DNA from: an uncultured bacterium
GTDB taxonomy: Bacteria; Patescibacteriota; Minisyncoccia; Phycocordibacterales; Phycocordibacteraceae
Direction: 5' to 3'
Assembly: GCA_963759775.1 (NCBI GenBank)
Contig: CAVXAH010000001.1
Location: 38,787 to 102,786 of the forward strand
DNA: 64,000 nt
Of the stretch, positions 4,551 to 47,362 are shown in pieces; the stretch's first letter is position 1; each line of letters begins with the position of its first letter. The notes beneath the pieces were generated by a model. It ran no database searches. It was given only the letters and a program-made list of their open reading frames with translations, and had not been told where the DNA came from. The position numbers were made by a program, and so were the translations under genes.

Positions 4551-4949
4551 ATGTCTACTTCTCATTTCATTACTGCCGTTGGTCGCCGCAAAACTGCGGT
4601 TGCAACGGTCCGTGTCACCAAGGCCGCCAAAGCTAGCGTGGTAGTAAACGGCAAGACTCCGAAGGAATATTTCAAGACTGATGAGCGTGCAAAAGTTGCT
4701 GAGGAAGCACTTGGAGGTGCAGAGAGTGCTGAACACTATGCAGTCGTTGCCCGTGTTCACGGTGGCGGTATCGCCGCTCAGGCAGGCGCACTTCGTCACG
4801 CTATTGCTCGAGCAATCATTGAGGCAGAGCCAAACACTCGCGCAAAACTGAAAAGCATTGGTTTCCTTACCCGCGACTCACGCGCAAAGGAGCGCAAGAA
4901 GCCAGGTCTCAAGAAGGCGAGAAAAGCCCCTCAGTGGTCAAAGCGATAG
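4551..4949 (+). CDS. rpsI: 30S ribosomal protein S9
   Basis: 132 aa, GRRKTAVA N-terminus, basic KKPGLKKARKAPQ.SKR C-terminus. Confidence 0.95.
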   Translation: MSTSHFITAVGRRKTAVATVRVTKAAKASVVVNGKTPKEYFKTDERAKVAEEALGGAESAEHYAVVARVHGGGIAAQAGALRHAIARAIIEAEPNTRAKLKSIGFLTRDSRAKERKKPGLKKARKAPQWSKR

Positions 4950-5022: not shown

Positions 5023-5081
5023 GCAGACAGAGGTAGAGCACATTTTGTGGTAAACCAACCCAAACCAAAAGGAGCCCGACA

Positions 5082-5741
5082 ATGCACAAGCAGATAGGTA
5101 TGGCCTTCATGGCCATGTTTTTTGTTTCGGGGGTGGCATTTGCGGAGGACGAACAGTCCAAAGCACCTACCCTAAAGTCCTGCCAGGTTGCCAACAAGGA
5201 CAGTCGGTTGTGCCTGTTGCACGTTGACTATGGCCGGCCGCTTCAGCAGATGGTGATTGACGGCATGTTCAAGACTGTGGAAGAGCAAATCGACCTACAG
5301 AAATGGTCGGTCGTGCTGGAACCGGAAGCTCCAAGATTGGTTGCTGTCGGGATTCTTCGGCTTACGGCGAAGGGTATGGAGTCACTTTCCATCGATGGGC
5401 AAGGCATCTCCTCCACGATAGTGAGGGACTGGATGGCCGCCCATCGCTTACGTCCGGCAAATTTGCACGAACTGCTTGCTTTCCGTCTCGCCGGATCGGC
5501 ATGGGACCCTGAGCCATATTCGTGGCTTGTGGCACTTGGATTTGTCGCCACCCTAAATGGCGCCGACTACGTGCCACTGATTGATCTTGCTGAGGGTGGT
5601 TGGCAGCTCATTTTGTCGGAAGATGATTATTGGGACCCCGATACTCGGTTCCTCGCCGTTCTTGAAGATCAGCGGACGCCAGGCGACGTGATTCGTGAAC
5701 AGCTCCGGAAAACGCTGGACTCAGAAGTTTCTACGAGGTAA
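5082..5741 (+). CDS. hypothetical secreted protein (signal peptide)
   Basis: 219 aa; N-terminal hydrophobic signal-like segment MAFMAMFFVSGVAFA; strong RBS; no known domain recognised. Confidence 0.5.
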   Translation: MHKQIGMAFMAMFFVSGVAFAEDEQSKAPTLKSCQVANKDSRLCLLHVDYGRPLQQMVIDGMFKTVEEQIDLQKWSVVLEPEAPRLVAVGILRLTAKGMESLSIDGQGISSTIVRDWMAAHRLRPANLHELLAFRLAGSAWDPEPYSWLVALGFVATLNGADYVPLIDLAEGGWQLILSEDDYWDPDTRFLAVLEDQRTPGDVIREQLRKTLDSEVSTR

Positions 5742-5885: not shown

Positions 5886-6444
5886 ATGAGTGATAATGAT
5901 GATGTACATATTGAATCCGATGACGCTGAAAGCGGTGCGAGCGAGTCTGAAATAGCCGAGAATGAGTCGCGTGCCGAAACAAAGCTCGGGAAGCTCCACG
6001 CAGAACTTGATGCGTGCAAGAAAGAGAAACAGGAGTACCTGGACGGCTGGCAGCGCTCAAAGGCAGACTATGTAAATGCGTTGAAACGTTCTGAGGGCGA
6101 TTTAAAAACGGCCCGGTCAGTGGGGCTTATGAAGGCTGTAGAAGCCCTTCTCCCTGCGTATGACGCTCTTGGGCGCGCGACCGGGCACGGCGAAGTACCT
6201 GCTGGTTTTCAGGCTATTGCTAAGCAACTAGAAAGTTCCTTCGCTACGCTCTGGGCTCACGGAGGTGGGGAAGGTCGGTGAGAAGTTTGACCCTCTGATT
6301 CACGAGGCCCTGGGACAGGATCCCGTAGACTCAGAAAACAAGGATGACACGGTCACGGCAGTTCTTGAGACAGGTTGGAAGATTCAAGATACAATCATCC
6401 GACCAGCAAAAGTGCGCGTCGGGCGTTTTCAGGAAAATAAATAG
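5886..6444 (+). CDS. grpE: nucleotide exchange factor GrpE, with apparent +1 frameshift near 6273
   Basis: N-terminal 131 aa in frame 0, GrpE C-terminus (GEKFDPLIHEAL...VRVGRF) in frame +1; an extra g in the aagg run restores one ORF. Confidence 0.85.
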
Positions 6445-6490
6445 TTGCATTTGTTTTCCTTTTTTTGTATTTTTTATTATCTTACTATAA

Positions 6491-8388
<1,898 letters not shown>

Positions 8389-8396
8389 AAGTTTAA

Positions 8397-10417: not shown

Positions 10418-11670
10418 ATGAACATCGCTGAGGATTTGAAGGCGCGAGGGCTCGTGGAGCACTCATCTGCTGATGTCGCCACCATTCTTGGCACCCCGCG
10501 TACGGTGTACCTCGGCATAGACCCCACTGCCGACTCACTCCACGTCGGGCACTTAGTTCCCATTCTTTTTATGAAGCGGCTTGCCGCGGCAGGTCATAAG
10601 CTTGTCTTTTTGGTTGGGGGCGGTACCGGCATGATTGGCGATCCGAAAGAGAAAGGGGAGCGCGTACTGCTTGATGAGAAAACCATAAGTAAAAATACGG
10701 AGGCTCTCAAAAAACAACTTGAAGACATTTTGGGACGCTTGCCATTCAAAATGGTAGACAACGCCACATGGCTCTCTAAGGTCCGTCTTGTGCCATTCCT
10801 TCGCGACATAGGAAAACACTTCACCGTAAACGACCTCGTAAAGCGCGACCTCATAGCAAAACGCCTTGCAACTCCGGATGAGAGTATTTCGTACACTGAA
10901 TTCACCTACTCACTTCTCCAGGCCTATGATTATTTGGAATTAAATACTAAATACCACTGCGATCTTCAGGTTGGGGCTTCGGACCAATGGACGAACATTC
11001 TTTCGGGTGTTGACCTTATCCGCAAGAAAAAGGAAAAGAAGCGTTCGCGCTCACGGTTCCTTTGGTTACTGACGCGAGCGGCAAAAAGTTTGGGAAATCC
11101 GAAGGAAATGCAGTATGGCTTGACCCTGAGAAGACATCTCCGTACCAGTTCTATCAGTTTTGGCTTGGCTTACCGGACGAAGGCATAGAAAAGTATCTCA
11201 AGATTTATACTACTCTTCCGCTTGGAGACATTGAGGCACTTATGGAGAAGCATCGCGCGGCTCCACAAGAGCGCGAGGCGCAAGAGGTGCTTGCGCGTTT
11301 CGCGACTGAGTCGTTGCATGGCCCAGCAAATACCGCAGAAGCGGCGGCGGCAACCGATGCGCTTTTTGGCGGACGCTCTCTTGAAAGCCTTAGTCGCGAC
11401 GAGCGTGAGGCGGTCATACGAGAAGTCCCATCCCTCGCACTTTCAAAGAAAGAACTTGAGGCAGGGTATCCACTTACTGAAGCACTAGTGGGAGGTAAGC
11501 TTGCTTCCTCAAAGTCCGATGCGCGCCGACTTATAGAAGGGAAGGCGGTTACTCTAAGCGGGCTGTTAATCGAAAATGCAGATCAAAAACTCTATCCGGG
11601 CGACCTCAGTGGCGGCCTCGCACTCATTCGCAAAGGCAAGCGCGATGTGCTCGTTTTGGTTTTGAAATAA
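10418..11670 (+). CDS. tyrS: tyrosyl-tRNA synthetase, apparent frameshift near 11030-11040 (A-run)
   Basis: class I HIGH motif (LHVGHL), KFGKSEGN (KMSKS-like), C-terminal S4 domain; pieces 10418-11188 and 11062-11670 colinear with TyrRS; start taken as MNIAEDLKARGLVE at 10418. Confidence 0.9.
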
Positions 11671-11699
11671 ATTCCGTCTTCGCGTATACTCAAAAAACT

Positions 11700-11783
11700 G
11701 CGTCGGTAGGTAAGTGGTCAAAACACGCACGCTGTAAACGTGCTGCCCTCGCGGCTTCGGAGGTTCGAATCCTCCCCGGCGCA
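11700..11783 (+). tRNA. tRNA-Tyr (anticodon GTA), type II with long variable arm; CCA not encoded
   Basis: acceptor stem GCGTCGG/CCGGCGC (one G-U), anticodon stem GCACG/CGTGC with loop CTGTAAA, T-arm GGAGG-TTCGAAT-CCTCC; D-arm pairing weak. Confidence 0.7.
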
Positions 11784-11798
11784 CACAAAAAAGGACGT

Positions 11799-11828
11799 CC
11801 CGAGCGTGAGCTCGGGCGTTTCTTTTTG
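11799..11828 (+). terminator. rho-independent terminator after tRNA-Tyr
   Basis: cccgagc-gtga-gctcggg followed by cgtttcttttt. Confidence 0.6.
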
Positions 11829-11833
11829 TGGCA

Positions 11834-11850
11834 GCCGGGGAGGATTCGAA
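11834..11850. repeat. inverted 17-nt copy of the tRNA-Tyr T-arm/acceptor 3' segment
   Basis: gccggggaggattcgaa is the exact reverse complement of ttcgaatcctccccggc at 11764-11780. Confidence 0.8.
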
Positions 11851-12198
11851 GAGACGGAGCGGGGTACCCATTCAGCAGAATGGGTCGCGAGGCGCGGACA
11901 CGACCAAACCCAAGCGACGGCGAGGGTTTGAGTTGCGGAAGAAAAGTGTACTCACGGTCCAATCCCGGCGCTCCGCCCGCGCGGTTACGCGTCGGGCGCT
12001 GGAGCCTATGCCGCTCTCTATGCACGGTTTTGTTGGCGGGGGGTTGCGGAGCGAGGGCACGTAGCTTCGCAAGGTCGGAGCCTGACGAGGCGAGACGGGG
12101 TCGCGGAATCCGCCAGCAGGCGGATATCTGTGACAGAAGCTTGAAAAAGGAATGGAGCGGCAGGGCGAGGGTCGATTTTGGGTTATACTGAAAACTAT

Positions 12199-12996
12199 AT
12201 GGCCACGGCTACACTTACAAAAAACCTTAAACGACCTGCTCCAAAAAATACGGATTCTTTTGATAACTTTTTAAACGAAATAATTTGTGGTGATGTTATG
12301 GATGTGCTGAAAAAGATCCCTGACGGATCAATTGATATTGTCGTCACATCACCTCCCTATAATCTCAAAAACTCTACTGGCAACGGAATGAAAGATGGTC
12401 GTGGCGGTAAATGGGCAAACGCGGCACTTCAAAAAGGATATTCACATCATCATGACTGTATGCCTCACGGTGAGTATGTTCAATGGCAGAGAAATTGTTT
12501 GGCAGAAATGTTAAGAATCGTCCCGGACGATGGTGCAATCTTTTATAATCACAAATGGCGTGTACAAAACGGATTACTACAGGACCGTCAAGATATTGTG
12601 GAGGGTTTACCTGTACGCCAAATCATAATCTGGCGCAGAAAAGGCGGCTTCAATTTTAATCCCGGATATTTCGTGCCCACCTATGAAGTTATCTATCTCA
12701 TCGCCAAAAAAGATTTTAGACTTGCCCCCAAAGCAAATGGTCATGGTGATGTGTGGGAGTTCACGCAAGAAATGAATAATGATCATCCAGCAGCTTTCCC
12801 CATTGATTTGATCGATAGAATTATTGCTTCTACAAACGCGAAGACCGTTTTAGATCCTTTCATGGGTTCTGGCACCACTGCCATTTCAGCCATAAATAAT
12901 GGTCGTCACTATGTTGGTATCGAAATCTCGCCTGAATACTGCGAAATGGCAGAGAAGAGAATAAAAGACCACAAATCCCAAATTAAACTTTGGTAA
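12199..12996 (+). CDS. DNA methyltransferase, beta-class (motif IV SPPY precedes motif I FxGxG); N4-cytosine or N6-adenine
   Basis: VVTSPPYNL then DPFMGSGTT; about 40% GC versus about 55% for flanks; ATG at 12199 preferred over the TTG at 12178 used by the ORF track. Confidence 0.85.
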   Translation: MATATLTKNLKRPAPKNTDSFDNFLNEIICGDVMDVLKKIPDGSIDIVVTSPPYNLKNSTGNGMKDGRGGKWANAALQKGYSHHHDCMPHGEYVQWQRNCLAEMLRIVPDDGAIFYNHKWRVQNGLLQDRQDIVEGLPVRQIIIWRRKGGFNFNPGYFVPTYEVIYLIAKKDFRLAPKANGHGDVWEFTQEMNNDHPAAFPIDLIDRIIASTNAKTVLDPFMGSGTTAISAINNGRHYVGIEISPEYCEMAEKRIKDHKSQIKLW

Positions 12997-13000
12997 TACT

Positions 13001-13798
13001 ATGAAAAAGAAATCGGTTATCTATACCAAACCATCTCTTATCGCAAAACTAAAAGAAATTTCAGCGACGGGATGGATTCCAAATGCTCGTCACGGCAATG
13101 CTGGCGGTATTGGTAATACACTTGAGGATTTGCTCGGTATCAAAGAAAACAATTTGCCAATCCCAAATGCCGCAGAATGGGAACTAAAAACACAAAGAGC
13201 AAACACGACTTCACTCACTACTCTTTTTCACATAGAACCGTCGCCGAGAGCCATTGGCTTTGTGCCAAAAGTGCTTCTGCCGATGTACGGTTGGGCTCAT
13301 CAAGAGGATGGAAAGAAATATCCAAAAGGAGAAAAGAGTTTCCGGCAGACGATACATGGACAATCACCGAGCGACCGAGGATTTAAGGTCGTTATAGATC
13401 GCAAGGAAGAAAAGGTCCTTATCTCTTTTGACGCAGGAGGCGTGGATATAAGACACAAGAAATGGCTAACGACAGTTAAAAAGCGCATAGGGCTTACGGA
13501 ATTAAATCCACAGCCTTATTGGGGCTTTGATGATCTTGAGCATAAGGCAGGAACAAAACTACTCAATTCTTTTTACGTGCAGGCGGAAGTGAAAATTGAA
13601 GAGAAAAAAGAATTCTATCACTACACGAAAGTGATGATGCTTCAGAAGTTCAGCTTTGAGGGATTTCTCAAAGCACTTGAAGAAGGCAAGGTTCTCGTAG
13701 ATTTTGATGCTCGAACGGGACACAACCATGGAACCAAGTTTCGCCTACGCCAGGATTGTTTACCCATGTTGTACGAGAAAATAACGAAAATCCTATGA
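13001..13798 (+). CDS. Type II restriction endonuclease, MutH/MvaI-BcnI-like PD-(D/E)XK fold
   Basis: 265 aa, 5 bp downstream of the MTase; ...IPNAAEWELKT resembles the MutH catalytic (D/E)-X-K segment; size matches MvaI/BcnI family; AT-rich like the MTase. Confidence 0.55.
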   Translation: MKKKSVIYTKPSLIAKLKEISATGWIPNARHGNAGGIGNTLEDLLGIKENNLPIPNAAEWELKTQRANTTSLTTLFHIEPSPRAIGFVPKVLLPMYGWAHQEDGKKYPKGEKSFRQTIHGQSPSDRGFKVVIDRKEEKVLISFDAGGVDIRHKKWLTTVKKRIGLTELNPQPYWGFDDLEHKAGTKLLNSFYVQAEVKIEEKKEFYHYTKVMMLQKFSFEGFLKALEEGKVLVDFDARTGHNHGTKFRLRQDCLPMLYEKITKIL

Positions 13799-13925
13799 GC
13801 GACACAGATGCGCTGTATGTGATCTGGAAGCACTTGAAAGAGATAACGGGTTAACCTATCAGAGCCACCACAAAATAAAGACCGCTCTCGTGAGAGAGCG
13901 GTGAAGGTAGATGAAAGAGCGACTG

Positions 13926-14111
13926 TCAGTTTGGATTGAAGTTCGGATCCTCGGCCTCGTCACCCTCGAACATTTCGAGTTGCGGCCGATCAATCAAGTC
14001 AAACTGTCCCGCGCCCGCCAAAGGGTCACGCGGCGTGTGCGTGTCGGCTGGCCACTCCGCCCTAAACCCTTCCGCGAGCGCGTTGCTACGCGGTCCAGAT
14101 TGTGCACTCAT
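13926..14111 (-). CDS. hypothetical small acidic protein
   Basis: 61-aa ORF, GC-rich, no RBS; weak. Confidence 0.2.
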   Translation of the reverse strand: MSAQSGPRSNALAEGFRAEWPADTHTPRDPLAGAGQFDLIDRPQLEMFEGDEAEDPNFNPN

Positions 14112-14257
14112 AAATTTCCCCCGTATCTGATTCCCTGAACCCCAGGGAGATAAGACCGTCAGTTCTGTAAAGCAACCGACGATACCTCAATGGTATTCCT
14201 GGTATGAGTGATGTCAACGAATAGAGCGTGCATATCTTTATGCGACATATAAAATCT

Positions 14258-14287
14258 TGCATCAAATGCAGGAAGTGGTATAATGTA
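14258..14287 (+). promoter_or_regulatory. sigma70-like promoter (TTGCAT-16-TATAAT)
   Basis: ttgcat caaatgcaggaagtgg tataat, upstream of the 14335 ORF. Confidence 0.45.
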
Positions 14288-14334
14288 TGCAGATTTTAAG
14301 GAGTTCCCACAACACCTATCAACAAGGAGATGTC

Positions 14335-14583
14335 ATGCCCGTAAACGATATTGAGGTACCGATCATTAGTCGGCAGGCGCCTCCAGGAATGGTCCGACTC
14401 ATGCTTGGTCCAAAGGAAGAGACGTCTCGTAACAACGACGAAGAAATGCACATCCTCGATCGTCCGGCTTCGCAGCTCCCATATGTTATCGGCCGAGCGG
14501 AAGCACTTACCACGGAGACTAAGACCGGTCGGATATTTAACGACAAAAAAGTACAGCTCCATCCGAAACGTCCACGACCATGA
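14335..14583 (+). CDS. hypothetical protein
   Basis: 82 aa starting at MPVNDIEV with RBS aaggaga 5 nt upstream; no known domain. Confidence 0.35.
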   Translation: MPVNDIEVPIISRQAPPGMVRLMLGPKEETSRNNDEEMHILDRPASQLPYVIGRAEALTTETKTGRIFNDKKVQLHPKRPRP

Positions 14584-14616
14584 TGCGCCCACAAAACCTC
14601 GCGAACAACACACTGT

Positions 14617-15141
14617 TTGCGAGGTTTTTTATTTCTGCGTTTGTATGGAAGTATGTCGTCGTCAAAGCCGGAATTGGATATTCCCACCTCCTATCGAGCA
14701 ATGATAGAGAGCTCGGTTGGGGCGAATCTCTTCCGCCATCTCTATTTTCGTATAAACGGTAAAACGATTGACGTGCTTGAGGACGGCGATCTCTCCTGCG
14801 CGATGTTTGTTACTACTATTCTTCTCACATTCGGGCTGATTAAAGAATTGCACACTACTGTAAACGAAACCCTCAAAGATATTCAAGAGTCAGGTTGGTA
14901 TGAAATTCCTGAACCGCGGGCAGGAGCTCTTATCTTGTGGGGGTTCAAAAAGAAAGATGGCGGTACGCAGGGGAAACATCGTCATGTTGGATTTTTCATA
15001 GATACCGAAACTGCGATCAGCAATGATTCCGATACTCGAGTGATTCTGCGTCATCATCCAACTTACGGGACATTCCCAAACGGGGAAGCGCGACGCGATA
15101 TTCTTGCGTACTACTGGAACGACAAGTTGAACACAAAATAA
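14617..15141 (+). CDS. putative NlpC/P60- or CHAP-like cysteine hydrolase
   Basis: Cys in DLSCAMFV and His in HRHVGFF spaced about 60 aa apart as in papain-like NlpC/P60 amidases; start may be at the internal Met (14653). Confidence 0.35.
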   Translation: MRGFLFLRLYGSMSSSKPELDIPTSYRAMIESSVGANLFRHLYFRINGKTIDVLEDGDLSCAMFVTTILLTFGLIKELHTTVNETLKDIQESGWYEIPEPRAGALILWGFKKKDGGTQGKHRHVGFFIDTETAISNDSDTRVILRHHPTYGTFPNGEARRDILAYYWNDKLNTK

Positions 15142-15227
15142 AGATATCCCCCAATGAAGCTTGTGTGAATATTCTGTCGCGGTACCGTTACTAGCAGAAC
15201 CCCCGCCACCAACCGAAGGAGAAATCC

Positions 15228-15650
15228 ATGACTAACCTCATACTCCTCTTTCGGCATTGCATCGAAAGGGGTGAAGAACGACCGTACATTGACCGGTTAA
15301 TTGCAGATGCGCAAAAGCGTTTCAAAGGCCTCTACATGAAAGACGCAATGTGGTGGGAGACGAAAGAAGAATTTCACTTCAAGTACCTCATTCCACCCGC
15401 TTCGATCGTGGTTGCCGCACGGCAGTTCGCGATTCCCGTTTCGGAGATGCTCATTGCACGCCTCGTCCCAAACGGCGTTGATGTTTGCGGAAAGATGTTT
15501 CTGCTCCCCCAACGAGTTCGTCTGGAAGTGGAGCATACTTCGCTCCGCAGACCACTTGACCTCATTGCTCGTCCTCTTATTAAGGGCAGGACCAAGGCGG
15601 AAATCGTGCAAATGGCGCGTGCACTGAAACTTGAAGTCACGGCGGAGTAA
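15228..15650 (+). CDS. hypothetical protein
   Basis: 140 aa with good RBS (aaggagaaatcc ATG); no known domain. Confidence 0.5.
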   Translation: MTNLILLFRHCIERGEERPYIDRLIADAQKRFKGLYMKDAMWWETKEEFHFKYLIPPASIVVAARQFAIPVSEMLIARLVPNGVDVCGKMFLLPQRVRLEVEHTSLRRPLDLIARPLIKGRTKAEIVQMARALKLEVTAE

Positions 15651-15668
15651 CCCTCCGCCGTTTTTATT

Positions 15669-16646
15669 TTGTGGTATCTTTTTTACATGATGGGAGCGAA
15701 ACCAGTCCTTGTCTCCGGCGTAAAACCGAGCGGAGTACTCCATATTGGCAACTACTTTGGCGCAATGCGTCAGCAAGTTGAACTCTTTAAGTCGGGGAAA
15801 TACCGCTGTTTCATCTTCGTTGCGGACTATCACGCCCTGAATACAACCCAAGACGCAGCGACGATGCGCGAGCAAATACGCGACCTGGTGATGGCGTATA
15901 TTGCTGTTGGCCTAGACCCAAAAGAGGTAGTGCTCTTTAAGCAATCCGATGTGCCTGCACACACCGAACTCGCGTGGATCTTTGACACCATCACTACCAT
16001 GCCGTATCTGCAGCGCGCACACGCCTACAAAGACGCAACTGCAAAAAACAAAGAAATCAGTGTCGGCACGTTCAACTACCCCATGCTCATGGCATCTGAC
16101 ATTTTGCTCTACGACGCAAAAATTGTACCGGTGGGGCAAGACCAGAAACAGCATGTTGAGTACGCGCGCGATACGGCGGAGAAATTTAACCGTACTTTCA
16201 AAGAAGAAGTTTTCCAACTACCTGAAGCGCACATCATGGCAGACGTTGCGGTAGTGCCAGGCACTGATGGGCAAAAGATGAGCAAGAGCTACGGAAACAT
16301 CATCCCGCTCTTTGCTTCGCACGACGAACTTACGAAGCGCGTCATGAGCATCGTGACCGACTCTTCCGGAAGCCGACCAGAAAACGTATACGCCATCCAC
16401 AAACTCCTCCGCAACGAGAGTGAGCTTACTACCATATATGGTAGTAATGAAGGGAATTATAAAGCGCTTAAAGAGGCGCTTGTCGCTGACCTGGATCGTT
16501 ACCTTGCTCCCATGCGCGCAACGTACGAAGAATTGCAAAACAATCCTGACGTTATTGACGAAGTTCTTGTTGCAGGGAAGAGGGAGGCGCGTGCCGTTTC
16601 GGAGGCGAAGATGGAAAGTGTTCGGAAGGCAATAGGCGTATCATAA
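15669..16646 (+). CDS. trpS: tryptophanyl-tRNA synthetase
   Basis: class I HIGH (LHIGNYFGA) and KMSKS (KMSKSYGN) motifs, about 325 aa; true start may be the internal MMGAKP. Confidence 0.9.
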   Translation: MWYLFYMMGAKPVLVSGVKPSGVLHIGNYFGAMRQQVELFKSGKYRCFIFVADYHALNTTQDAATMREQIRDLVMAYIAVGLDPKEVVLFKQSDVPAHTELAWIFDTITTMPYLQRAHAYKDATAKNKEISVGTFNYPMLMASDILLYDAKIVPVGQDQKQHVEYARDTAEKFNRTFKEEVFQLPEAHIMADVAVVPGTDGQKMSKSYGNIIPLFASHDELTKRVMSIVTDSSGSRPENVYAIHKLLRNESELTTIYGSNEGNYKALKEALVADLDRYLAPMRATYEELQNNPDVIDEVLVAGKREARAVSEAKMESVRKAIGVS

Positions 16647-45810: not shown

Positions 45811-45882
45811 GGCCCTATCGTCTAACGGTTAGGACGGAGCCTTCTCAAGGCTTAAATCGGGGTTCGATTCCCCGTAGGGTCA
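45811..45882 (+). tRNA. tRNA-Glu (anticodon CTC); CCA not encoded
   Basis: acceptor GGCCCTA/TAGGGTC, D-arm GTC-TAACGGTTA-GAC, anticodon stem GAGCC/GGCTT with loop TTCTCAA, T-arm CGGGG-TTCGATT-CCCCG; close to the E. coli tRNA-Glu layout. Confidence 0.8.
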
Positions 45883-45955
45883 TGACGCACCGCACGGCCG
45901 CCGAAAGGCGGCTTTGTGCGTCATGATCCTAAGCAAAGCCTGGGAGGCTTTGCGT

Positions 45956-45971
45956 CGGGGAATCGAAAACC
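45956..45971. repeat. inverted partial copy of the tRNA-Glu T-loop
   Basis: ggggaatcgaa is the reverse complement of ttcgattcccc. Confidence 0.5.
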
Positions 45972-46054
45972 TTGCGAGCATATTTTGCAATTTCCTGAAG
46001 CAAAATATCCGCAAGGTGTACTGAAACTGTAAGTTTCGATAAGCGTACTCGCGG

Positions 46055-46068
46055 TCCCCGTAGGGTCA
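46055..46068 (+). repeat. 14-nt direct repeat of the tRNA-Glu 3' end (TCCCCGTAGGGTCA)
   Basis: exact match to 45869-45882, 173 bp downstream; att-site-like. Confidence 0.8.
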
Positions 46069-46072
46069 CAAA

Positions 46073-47362
46073 TTATCTCCGTTTCCACTCCTTCTCTTGC
46101 CTTACCAATTTAGAGACGTTTGCGGGGTCGGCAAGAAGTGCCTCCACAATGCGTTCGGTCCGGATAGACTGCGAACCTTTTATAAGTACTACGTCCCCTT
46201 CTTTCACAAAGGTAGGCAGGGTGGCGGCCGCGGCATGAGAATCTTCAAGAGCAAATGCACGCTCGGCCGACATGCCCGCAAGACGTGCCGCCTCTACCAT
46301 TTGCTTTGAGCGAATCCCTACCCCCACCACCACGTCTGCCGCATCTGCCGCAGAAGCGCCGATGCGGGAGTGTTCAGTCACGGAGTAGCGACCAAGCTCA
46401 AGCATGTCTCCCAGCACGGCGATACGACGACCGCGACAAGGAAACTCTTTCAAATTCCACAACGCTTCTTCAACTGCAGCAGGAGAAGAATTATAGGATT
46501 CATCAATAAGATACGAGCCATGTTTCCCCAAAAGGAGCCGACCGCGTCCGGGCGGAGGAACAAAAGCAGCGAGTGCCTCTATCGCCTCTTTGAGTGAGAT
46601 ACCAAATACGCTTGCCGCGGCGATGGCCGACCCCACAGAAAGCATCTGTGTGCGACCTATAGAACCCCTCACTATAGCGGGAACCTTTTTACCCGCGAAA
46701 GTTACGATGGCTTGCATGCCGGAGGCCATGCCGCTCTCTTCGTACAATTCAATTTGATCCAATCGCACATTTGATTCCGGCTCAACGCCGTACGTGACCA
46801 GACGCACCGGAAGACGCTTTGCCATTTCTTTCGCAAACGAATCGCTTTCCGAAATGATGAGTGGCGCGGCAGACGGAAGTGCATACGCCGGTGAGAATTC
46901 TTCTTCTCTGACCGCCTGTGGGGTTGCGTACGCCTCTACGTGCACAGGGACGTCCGGCAAGCGCGTAATGACGACCGCGTCTGGGGTTGCGATTTTGAGT
47001 ATTTTCGCGAGGTCGCCTGGTCGGTCCGCTCCCACTTCAAGCACCAAGAGGTTTGGGTAATGGTTCGGGAGAAAGAGAAGCGAGAAAATCTGCTTTATAA
47101 TTTTTGTCCACGCAAGCGGGTTTCCCCATGGGTTGGGAACTCCAAAAACAGTAAAAGGAACTCCAAACTCTGTGTTGTAGCTCTTCTCACTTTTGCGGAC
47201 AAAGAAACGCGAAGAAAGTGCGGCAGCTACCGCATCTTTCGTTGAGGTCTTCCCCACCGAGCCACTAATCATCACTACCTTGGGGCGATAGCGCCGCACC
47301 ACCTGGTGCGCCGCTATGGCGAGAACGCGCGCAACACACGATTTGAGAAAATCCCTAATCAT
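46073..47362 (-). CDS. murF: UDP-N-acetylmuramoyl-tripeptide--D-alanyl-D-alanine ligase
   Basis: Mur ligase P-loop GSVGKTSTKD, GDMLELG motif characteristic of MurF. Confidence 0.9.
   Translation of the reverse strand: MIRDFLKSCVARVLAIAAHQVVRRYRPKVVMISGSVGKTSTKDAVAAALSSRFFVRKSEKSYNTEFGVPFTVFGVPNPWGNPLAWTKIIKQIFSLLFLPNHYPNLLVLEVGADRPGDLAKILKIATPDAVVITRLPDVPVHVEAYATPQAVREEEFSPAYALPSAAPLIISESDSFAKEMAKRLPVRLVTYGVEPESNVRLDQIELYEESGMASGMQAIVTFAGKKVPAIVRGSIGRTQMLSVGSAIAAASVFGISLKEAIEALAAFVPPPGRGRLLLGKHGSYLIDESYNSSPAAVEEALWNLKEFPCRGRRIAVLGDMLELGRYSVTEHSRIGASAADAADVVVGVGIRSKQMVEAARLAGMSAERAFALEDSHAAAATLPTFVKEGDVVLIKGSQSIRTERIVEALLADPANVSKLVRQEKEWKRR

Follow-up and report, generated by a model that had tools for sequence, protein, structure and literature searches.

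A predicted Type II restriction–modification island at a tRNA-Tyr hot spot of a Patescibacteriota genome, and a separate module that trails tRNA genes

Described systems and the tRNA-Tyr/trpS hot spot

In the restriction–modification (R-M) system MvaI of Kocuria varians, R.MvaI cleaves CC^WGG and M.MvaI methylates the inner cytosine at N4; BcnI cleaves CC^SGG. Folded phage attachment sites (attP) of the CTXphi type hold two inverted core sites ~90 nt apart. In streamlined genomes, tycheposons are genomic islands that grow additively at tRNA genes (Hackl et al., bioRxiv 10.1101/2020.12.28.424599). R-M pairs move without a mobility gene of their own; repeats, direct or inverted, or long target duplications flank some of them, and some are linked to tRNAs (Furuta et al. 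2010, NAR 38:2428, PMC2853133). Here, we compare these systems with a locus in a 64,000-nt stretch of contig CAVXAH010000001.1 from an uncultured Patescibacteriota bacterium (the window), where a predicted Type II R-M pair lies between a tRNA-Tyr gene and trpS. Labels such as L001 and L002 denote the compared loci and genomes.

Our overall reading, held with a probability of about 0.72, is that ~3.9 kb of foreign DNA with a Type II R-M core occupies a tRNA-Tyr hot spot, and that a separate tRNA-trailing module found there is a recombination footprint. The nearest TrpS relatives were ~80% identical and came under the names Patescibacteria, Paceibacteria, and Kaiserbacteria. The gene order dnaK-dnaJ-...-tyrS-tRNA-Tyr-[x]-trpS-aspS is common to seven such relatives. 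The site in the window and its state in six relatives are listed below.

10418..11670, plus strand: tyrS, split over two frames (list of open reading frames (ORFs) and tblastn of the L082 TyrS)
11700..11784, plus strand: tRNA-Tyr (GTA), intact, no encoded CCA (ARAGORN; Rfam RF00005, 49.2 bits)
15687..16646, plus strand: trpS, right-hand flank of the hot spot, with a conserved -10-like TGGTATC box directly upstream
L082: empty site, trpS 26 nt after tRNA-Tyr, without the hairpin and without a tRNA copy
L105: empty site, trpS 28 nt after tRNA-Tyr, without the hairpin and without a tRNA copy
L083: five unrelated ORFs between tRNA-Tyr and trpS
L106: three other ORFs between tRNA-Tyr and trpS
L107: tRNA-Tyr inverted, with an AdoMet decarboxylase gene alongside (6401-6896)
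L108: zeta-toxin gene within direct repeats of ~95 nt

The relatives, with their empty sites and unrelated cargo, show that insertions recur between tRNA-Tyr and trpS, which makes this interval a hot spot; the ~3.9 kb that it holds in the Paceibacteria-like genome of the window (11785 to ~15665) is inserted DNA. An earlier note on this DNA had proposed horizontal acquisition, and the comparison of the tyrS-trpS interval bore this out: it is empty in L082 and L105 and holds other cargo in L083, L106, L107, and L108. The same genes at the same site, the sign of an ancestral locus, were not found among the compared relatives with shared synteny. None of the DNA at 13799-15665 is present in the empty-site relatives. 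This right-hand part belongs to the inserted DNA and may or may not have arrived jointly with the R-M pair.

The R-M pair has a G+C (GC) content of 41.8%, compared with 51.1% for the window. At third codon positions, GC is 0.37 in the methyltransferase gene, 0.41 in the endonuclease gene, and 0.57 in trpS. The earlier figure of ~40% for the pair was close, but the ~55% given for the flanks was too high, the immediate flanks having 51-52%. Across the hosts of related pairs, with loci of less than 1 kb of flank omitted, the GC of the pair ranges over 0.34-0.47 and that of the host over 0.32-0.58. Low GC alone is no proof of recent arrival, because the pair stays near 0.34-0.47 in every host. This weak tracking of host GC would suit an R-M pair that is ancestral at the site, with low GC imposed by functional constraint and the pair lost from the relatives that lack it. 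We consider such an origin very improbable. In L082 and L105, trpS follows the tRNA after 26-28 nt with no scar, and other relatives hold unrelated cargo. The nearest R-M relatives, L001 and L002 (87% and 82% DNA identity), lie in unrelated genomic contexts. Moreover, TrpS of the nearest hosts is only ~80% identical, whereas the R-M proteins are 91-92% identical to copies in other contexts.

Further rearrangements were seen at the site in relatives. In L107, the orientation of tRNA-Tyr and the AdoMet decarboxylase gene between tyrS and trpS is reversed, which indicates that an inversion had a breakpoint at the tRNA. In L108, the zeta-toxin gene and small ORFs lie upstream of trpS, and the ~95-nt direct repeats (75-170 and 1683-1770) include the trpS promoter-like box; this cargo looks like an insertion with a long target duplication. 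In L081, a LAGLIDADG_3 ORF of 263 aa (6962-7817) lies between tyrS and tRNA-Tyr, its 3' end overlapping the tRNA start (7732).

The methyltransferase–endonuclease pair and its spread

The two genes of the pair are as follows.

12199..12996, plus strand: beta-class DNA methyltransferase (MTase), SPPY ... FMGSGTT (PF01555, PADLOC, PDB sequence matches)
13001..13798, plus strand: MvaI/BcnI-family restriction endonuclease (REase), residues E42, N56, E61, and K63 (PF15515, PADLOC, AF2/Foldseek)

The MTase matched PF01555 (N6_N4_Mtase) at 2.2e-37 (129.6 bits). VTSPPYN near residue 50 precedes FMGSGTT near residue 220, which is the beta-class order that the earlier note had read from SPPY and FxGxG. 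The REBASE-derived PADLOC model MTase_II PDLC03305 matched at 2.4e-121. This model has 513 residues; its first half fits the window MTase and its C-terminal half fits the endonuclease. It appears to represent a fused M-R form, which implies that fused versions exist or that a pair was annotated as one protein. The best solved full-length relatives were two entries deposited as DNA cytosine-N4 methyltransferase (8s9n, 1.6e-31), and NCBIfam gave weak, sub-threshold adenine-MTase matches only. Judged by the SPPY motif and these solved relatives, the product is probably N4-methylcytosine.

The REase matched PF15515 (MvaI_BcnI) at 1.7e-66 with 224.9 bits (cut-off 25), over profile positions 1-227 of 227. 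The REBASE-derived PADLOC model REase_II PDLC03524 matched at 4.4e-82. Solved structures were hit by sequence as well (MvaI 2oa9 at 2.5e-17, BcnI at 3.6e-6), with ~25% identity to MvaI. A shallow alignment (83-91% identity) had given an AlphaFold2 (AF2) model with a predicted local distance difference test score (pLDDT) of 39.6. With 35 diverse representatives, the pLDDT rose to 94.6 and the predicted template modelling score (pTM) was 0.90. In Foldseek, this model superposed on MvaI-DNA (2oaa) with TM scores of 0.76/0.81 (E = 1.6e-19) and on BcnI-DNA (2odi) with 0.69/0.76. The REase is thus predicted to have the two-lobe MvaI/BcnI fold (MutH-like, PD-(D/E)XK). The family assignment of the earlier note and its choice of MvaI and BcnI as precedents were right by family and fold. 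The two genes are co-oriented and 4 nt apart, and they stay together in essentially all of the 80 related loci. By homology, the pair is classed as a Type II R-M system of orthodox form, with separate M and R genes, and of an already catalogued kind.

The catalytic residues of MvaI are Glu36, Asp50, Glu55, and Lys57 (PMC1874612). In the HMMER alignment, E36/D50/E55/K57 correspond to E42/N56/E61/K63 of the window enzyme, and BcnI D55 also aligns with N56. The canonical tetrad is therefore incomplete, with Asn in place of the metal-binding Asp (codon 13166-13168, motif LPIPNAAEWELK). The motif P-N-A-A-E-W-E-L-K spans N56; more distant family members carry P-D. Among 36 diverse family members, Asp is the commonest residue in this column, and the Asn form makes up a subclade reaching down to ~33-58% identity. 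The substitution raises the alternative that the gene no longer encodes a cutting enzyme, so that the pair would consist of an MTase and a site-specific DNA-binding or nicking protein. The alignment of N56 with the Asp of both MvaI and BcnI, and the prevalence of Asp in the family, speak for it. However, P-N is invariant in 80/80 genome loci of a large, strongly constrained clade that is always paired with an MTase, and the seven viral-contig relatives that cover the region have it too. E42, E61, K63, and the acidic residue at -2 (E59) are all retained, and Asn could still bind a metal ion via its carbonyl oxygen. Protein identity among the loci is 80-92% at only ~70-87% DNA identity. This constraint and the invariable pairing argue for a toxic activity that needs protection, and we regard the loss of cutting as rather improbable.

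The contacts of MvaI in the major groove point to a related target. T68, D207, H223, H225, and R230 are conserved as T74, D234, H241, H243, and R248; T102 is not among the mapped residues, and R209, which reads the central base pair, is replaced by D236. Five of the six mapped base contacts are thus kept. The contacts to the outer and inner C:G pairs make a CC-N-GG-type site likely. With Asp in place of R209, the central base could be W, S, or N. Within the 80 homologous R-M gene pairs, CCWGG was the most depleted of 14 motif sets, with an observed/expected ratio (O/E) of 0.30, compared with 0.52 for CCSGG. This depletion is a weak hint at specificity, and CCWGG is our leading guess for the recognition site. 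Host avoidance of CCWGG or CCSGG was also tried as a clue and proved uninformative. By homology, the MTase would place its methyl group on cytosine N4 within such a CC-N-GG-type site, and a monomeric MvaI-like endonuclease would cut unmethylated sites one strand at a time.

Endonuclease homologues formed 6981 clusters at 90% identity, the best 120 of which were 83-91% identical, their names spanning many candidate phyla. When one genome per species was scanned, homologues turned up in at least 541 genomes, the best 80 being 79-92% identical. The hosts among these best 80 include Sungiibacteriota, Uhr-, Kaiser-, Yanofsky-, Davies-, Falkow-, Taylor-, and Moranbacteria, together with Peregrinibacteria, Gracilibacteria, Berkelbacteria, Kazan, and Saganbacteria. 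Genomes labelled as the archaea Aenigmatarchaeota, Micrarchaeota, and Thermoplasmatota are present as well; there may be errors among the bin labels. Viral contigs held only more distant endonuclease relatives (57-71% identity). DNA similarity between hosts is limited to the two genes (~12260 to ~13800), with the leader partly common to L001 and L002 only, and no integrase accompanies the pair across hosts. A single, tightly conserved clade has been transferred among very many lineages of the candidate phyla radiation (CPR) and some archaeal-labelled genomes, including DPANN.

The clade is also found repeatedly behind tRNA genes. A same-strand tRNA ends within 700 nt upstream of the MTase in 12 of the 62 loci with enough flank, at an expectation of 0.0106 per locus from the tRNA density in the rest of the loci (binomial P = 2.6e-12). 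The tRNAs adjoining the cassettes vary (Ser, Gln, Ala, Leu, Glu, and Arg). The cassette thus repeatedly lands, or survives, immediately 3' of tRNA genes.

Side observations were made at related cassettes. Upstream of the closest R-M relative, L001 shows at ~4631-4895 an apparent tRNA gene with a ~190-nt insert after the anticodon stem and no ARAGORN call; the insert may be a group I-type intron. Directly after the R-M pair of L001, a GmrSD_N-domain protein and a HEPN (RiboL-PSP) protein (6802-8391) make up a small defence island. In L011 (~5030-5195) and L053 (~5035-5195), the tRNA and the MTase are separated by a small helix-turn-helix ORF of XRE type, which the window cassette lacks. From its sequence, we take this ORF to be controller-protein-like.

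The window cassette is preceded by a leader.

11978..12198, plus strand: GC-rich leader of the R-M cassette, with a block at ~12140-12172 common to the closest cassettes, L001 and L002

The block at 12140-12172 (33 nt) is 100% identical to L001 in blastn, although the coding DNA differs by 13%. GGAGCGGCAGGGCGAGGG in the leader was found in L001 and L002 only. A second block at ~12013-12045 matches L001 by eye only, and the MAFFT alignment supports 12140-12172 alone. The ~95 nt between the two blocks are specific to the window. Corresponding blocks lie at 5057-5121 in L001 and at 43-60 in L002. The two blocks are able to pair with each other (GCCGCTC with GGAGCGGC) around the ~95-nt insert, and may form a regulatory stem for R-M expression. 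The promoter scan found no sigma-70-like promoter in the leader.

The tRNA-trailing module

Between tRNA-Tyr and the R-M leader lies a module of ~190 nt. It consists, in order, of a terminator hairpin, an inverted copy of the tRNA 3' part (T-loop to 3' end), a structured spacer, and a direct copy; the spacer is ~55-110 nt long across examples. The window holds two modules.

11785..11833 (core 11799-11816), unstranded: terminator hairpin H, bidirectional (terminator scan on both strands; symmetric A/T tracts), centre of the palindrome 11764-11850
11834..11850, unstranded: inverted copy of part of tRNA-Tyr (T-loop and the 3' strands of T-stem and acceptor), GCCGGGGAGGATTCGAA, 17/17 complementary to 11764-11780
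11851..11947, unstranded: spacer S with a covarying hairpin at 11866-11885 (ACCCATTC-AGCA-GAATGGGT; alignment and alifold of four tRNA-Tyr modules)
11948..11973, unstranded: motif GTACTCACGGTCC, then a decayed direct tRNA 3' copy TCCAATCCCGGCGC at ~11956-11973 (motif search; comparison with other modules)
45811..46069, plus strand: second module after tRNA-Glu(CTC), the window's only other tRNA (tRNA 45811-45882, module 45883-46069)
~45955-45967: tRNA-Glu inverted copy TCGGGGAATCGAA, 13 nt of T-loop and T-stem, 12 nt exact
46045-46057: motif of the tRNA-Glu module GTACTCGCGGTCC, after a spacer with a long hairpin
46054-46069: tRNA-Glu direct copy of the 3' end, 15 nt, 14/15

The earlier note had reported a terminator after tRNA-Tyr, then the 17-nt inverted copy, then a GC-rich noncoding stretch, and all three were found (11851-12198, 61.5% GC, for the last). 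It had also placed the copy at the island junction and described it as inverted rather than direct. The copy is real, but it does not mark an R-M junction: it belongs to a module that is separate from the R-M island and occurs also without it. In addition to the inverted copy, the decayed direct copy is present. We estimate, with no tool behind the figure, that a 17-18-nt match within 400 nt is vanishingly unlikely to arise by chance.

The module recurs at several tRNAs. It follows tRNA-Tyr in L083 within the same tyrS/trpS context, and in the metagenome contigs L095 and L096 in other contexts with ordinary convergent neighbours. After tRNA-Gln (L078, L007) and tRNA-Ser (L014), each module adjoins a copy of the R-M cassette. 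In L014, M, R, and one further ORF are flanked by two copies of an 85-nt unit, and a 29-nt piece of the module recurs at the contig start of L078, which brackets that cassette as well. The tRNA-Glu module of the window is followed by no inserted genes; a convergent 429-aa ORF, which from its sequence we take to be a murF-like ligase, ends at 46073. Only a 20-nt block is common to the two window modules. Within the 64 kb, there are exactly two occurrences of the 13-nt motif GTACTCRCGGTCC, 155-156 nt after tRNA-Tyr and tRNA-Glu, and 0/100 shuffles gave two. In the tRNA-Glu module, the motif adjoins the direct copy, and in that of tRNA-Tyr the decayed one. L096, L095, L083, L078, L014, and L007 have clear direct copies at the equivalent place. 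Scans of viral contigs for the motif and the inverted copy returned only chance matches in coding DNA or phage tRNA arrays.

Sequence conservation within the module is uneven. Among the four tRNA-Tyr modules (window, L083, L095, and L096), hairpin H is 40-54% and spacer S 44-64% identical. In all four, the inverted copy pairs with its own tRNA at 17/17 positions, with one compensatory C-G/U-A change. The T-stem occurs as CCTCC or CCTTC, and the inverted copy follows the variant of its tRNA even in the pair with the most similar spacers. In the clearest cases (L078, L096), both the inverted and the direct copy start in the T-loop; the tRNA-Glu direct copy does not start until the last base of the T-loop. 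None of the inverted copies (Tyr in four genomes, Glu, and Gln of L078) extends into the complement of the T-stem 5' strand.

With moderate confidence, we read the module as the footprint or docking end of a site-specific recombination in the tRNA T-loop. This reading rests on the T-loop boundary, the direct copies, the cargo bracketing in L014 and L078, the shared motif, and the presence or absence of the module at tRNA-Tyr. Islands would grow additively, anchored at the tRNA, as in tycheposons, and solo modules would be remnants after cargo loss by recombination between two copies. The inverted copy may be kept matched by selection or by gene conversion within the palindrome; selection for a long hairpin or cruciform, or a role as an inverted recombinase site, are other options.

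The inverted copy might also have a quite different origin. GCCGGGGAGGATTCGAA is the outer part of an imperfect palindrome with 37-nt arms (11764-11800 and 11814-11850, 81%) centred on the terminator loop. Fold-back or template switching at the terminator quasipalindrome, with intra-strand correction of the arms, could have made the copy as a by-product with no function and no link to mobile DNA. Arm-to-arm correction would explain the perfect complementarity and the compensatory change, and L095 repeats the tRNA end and hairpin after the spacer, as in tandem-inversion duplications. Several features are at odds with this origin. The inverted copy stops within the T-loop, short of the T-stem 5' strand complement, and the hairpin-proximal parts of the palindrome match less well than the distal 17 nt. 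A homologous spacer and GTACTCRCGGTCC accompany the copy at two different tRNAs, and in the empty-site relatives both hairpin and copy are missing. The constant boundary in the T-loop and the closer match of the distal 17 nt speak against pure fold-back, and we judge palindrome growth to be unlikely.

The folding results bear on a further alternative, a functional RNA or DNA structure that would serve the tRNA gene or the convergent gene downstream of it, with no recombination scar involved. It could be a longer bidirectional terminator or insulator, a hairpin processed by RNase III, or a small RNA with an anti-tRNA segment. Hairpin H is G+C-rich and has a terminator score on both strands, and on either strand the region folds more stably than shuffled sequence (z -3.8 and -2.8). 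The spacer hairpin at 11866-11885 covaries, with several two-sided compensatory changes in four sequences only, and a hairpin of different sequence stands at the equivalent place in L083, L095, and L096. Often, a tRNA on one side and a convergent gene on the other enclose the module (tRNA-Glu of the window, L095, L096), whose inverted copy is conserved while the neighbouring segments drift. On the other hand, Rfam, searched over the whole window and permissively over 11600-12300, matched tRNAs alone and nothing over the GC-rich stretch (no tmRNA, T-box, or group I intron). The promoter scan found no promoter-like site in the spacer. Lying beyond the terminator, the copy would rarely be co-transcribed with the tRNA, and the close relatives L082, L105, and L081 do without the module. 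We hold such a functional structure, without recombination, to be distinctly improbable.

Other candidates were rejected. A minus-strand tmRNA-like gene (the minus strand ends TTCGAATCC...CCA before the terminator) and a minus-strand tRNA pseudogene both lack a T-stem 5' strand and have no ARAGORN call. Restriction and religation at the palindromic T-loop TTCGAA was ruled out by the non-palindromic TTCGATT of tRNA-Glu. The module is not an inverton (invertible promoter switch), as the spacer holds no promoter and keeps one orientation in the window, L083, L095, and L096. Nor is it a miniature inverted-repeat transposable element, as the repeat ends match the local tRNA and not each other across loci.

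Several observations weigh against our overall reading of a foreign R-M island and a recombination footprint. No integrase or recombinase domain was found in any ORF of 11785-15665, nor in those of the L083 and L014 islands. A search of the whole window that allowed up to 3 substitutions in 20 nt gave no tRNA fragment at the island's right end. Some relatives have cargo at the site and no module (L106), and most tRNA-adjacent cassettes elsewhere have neither the module nor flanking repeats. A recombination model does not account for the existence and perfect matching of the inverted copy; to our knowledge, classical integration yields direct repeats only, and no characterised integrase system explains such a copy. 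For the R-M core, cleavage is assumed for an enzyme with Asn at the metal-binding Asp position of MvaI/BcnI, and the host window shows no depletion of CCWGG (O/E 0.93).

A bolder combination goes beyond this reading. The module would be a functional docking or recombination structure, a trans-acting T-arm recombinase would move integrase-less cassettes at tRNAs, and, as a second new element, the endonuclease clade would work with a P-N...E-x-K active site. We consider this joint proposal doubtful. If true, it would explain how a two-gene defence cassette spread across CPR phyla and archaeal-labelled genomes, including DPANN.

The remaining parts of the inserted interval and the flanks are listed here.

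13799..15665, unstranded: rest of the inserted interval (ORF list; Pfam and PHROGs searches)
13926-14111, minus strand: 61-aa ORF, with a terminator at 13881-13902
14287-14583: 98-aa ORF (ORF list)
14617-15141: 174-aa ORF with a weak Amidase_5/endolysin-like match
15228-15650: 140-aa ORF (ORF list)

A repeat of the island at its right end was sought and not found, and the left end showed no similarity to 13799-14320. The only direct tRNA copy in the tRNA-Tyr island is thus the proximal, decayed one, and the distal end is without a repeat. On the left flank, the tyrS stop at 11668-11670 leaves 29 nt before tRNA-Tyr, one fewer than the earlier note had counted, and a promoter-like site (11662-11690) precedes the tRNA. 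The L082 TyrS matched in tblastn in frame 2 at 10418-11020 and in frame 1 at 11032-11667, which places a frame break, apparently a 1-nt indel, in an A-rich run near 11020-11045. Relative to close homologues, grpE, dnaK, and tyrS are each broken into 2-3 frames (window 5886-8385 and 10418-11667). Because dnaK and grpE are broken likewise, the tyrS split is probably an indel error of an indel-rich, probably long-read assembly rather than biology or a pseudogene. Both R-M ORFs are unbroken despite this.

Comparison with known systems

The module resembles a CTXphi-type attP and invertible-promoter switches in that inverted target-like copies bracket a structured spacer of ~90-110 nt. Neither model fits it well. 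Its inverted and direct copies in the window are poorly complementary to each other, the conserved pairing being that of the tRNA with the inverted copy, and its target is a tRNA and not dif. Unlike promoter switches, it shows a single spacer orientation in the four tRNA-Tyr examples and no detectable promoter. Integrase-borne tRNA islands share with the window island the start at the tRNA 3' end and the empty site in relatives, but the window island has no integrase and no distal direct repeat. L014, with two module copies around M, R, and one ORF, and L078 match the mobile R-M forms described; the window cassette differs in having no flanking repeat pair. We found no description of such a module in the open-access literature searched.

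The island taken alone is routine: one more MvaI/BcnI-type Type II system, horizontally acquired next to a tRNA. With MvaI and BcnI, the endonuclease shares PF15515, the MutH-like two-lobe fold, the E...E-x-K residues, and five of the six mapped MvaI contacts. As in the MvaI system, it is paired with an SPPY beta-class MTase whose nearest solved relatives are N4-cytosine enzymes. In contrast to MvaI, the window clade has Asn for D50 and Asp for R209 at ~25% identity, and lives in CPR and archaeal-labelled (including DPANN) genomes, spread across phyla. A natural Asn-for-Asp site in a strongly conserved PD-(D/E)XK enzyme poses a simple question for enzymology. We know of no single R-M clade described at this scale (at least 541 species, several phyla, some archaeal-labelled) and with a recurrent same-strand position after tRNAs. 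Ultra-small symbionts such as CPR bacteria largely lack CRISPR, and the spread of this clade over hundreds of species is concrete evidence of intense defence-gene traffic among them.

Tycheposons offer a further comparison. The window island differs from them in carrying no tyrosine recombinase and no replication module, in its conserved inverted tRNA copy, and in a repeat unit that is a structured ~190-nt module and not a bare att core. The integrase-less landing after tRNAs and the palindromic tRNA-derived module hint at an uncharacterised insertion route. The likenesses are a streamlined genome, an island on the 3' side of a tRNA, cargo that differs among relatives at the site, partial tRNA copies, defence genes in the cargo, and variation that is highest beside the tRNA.

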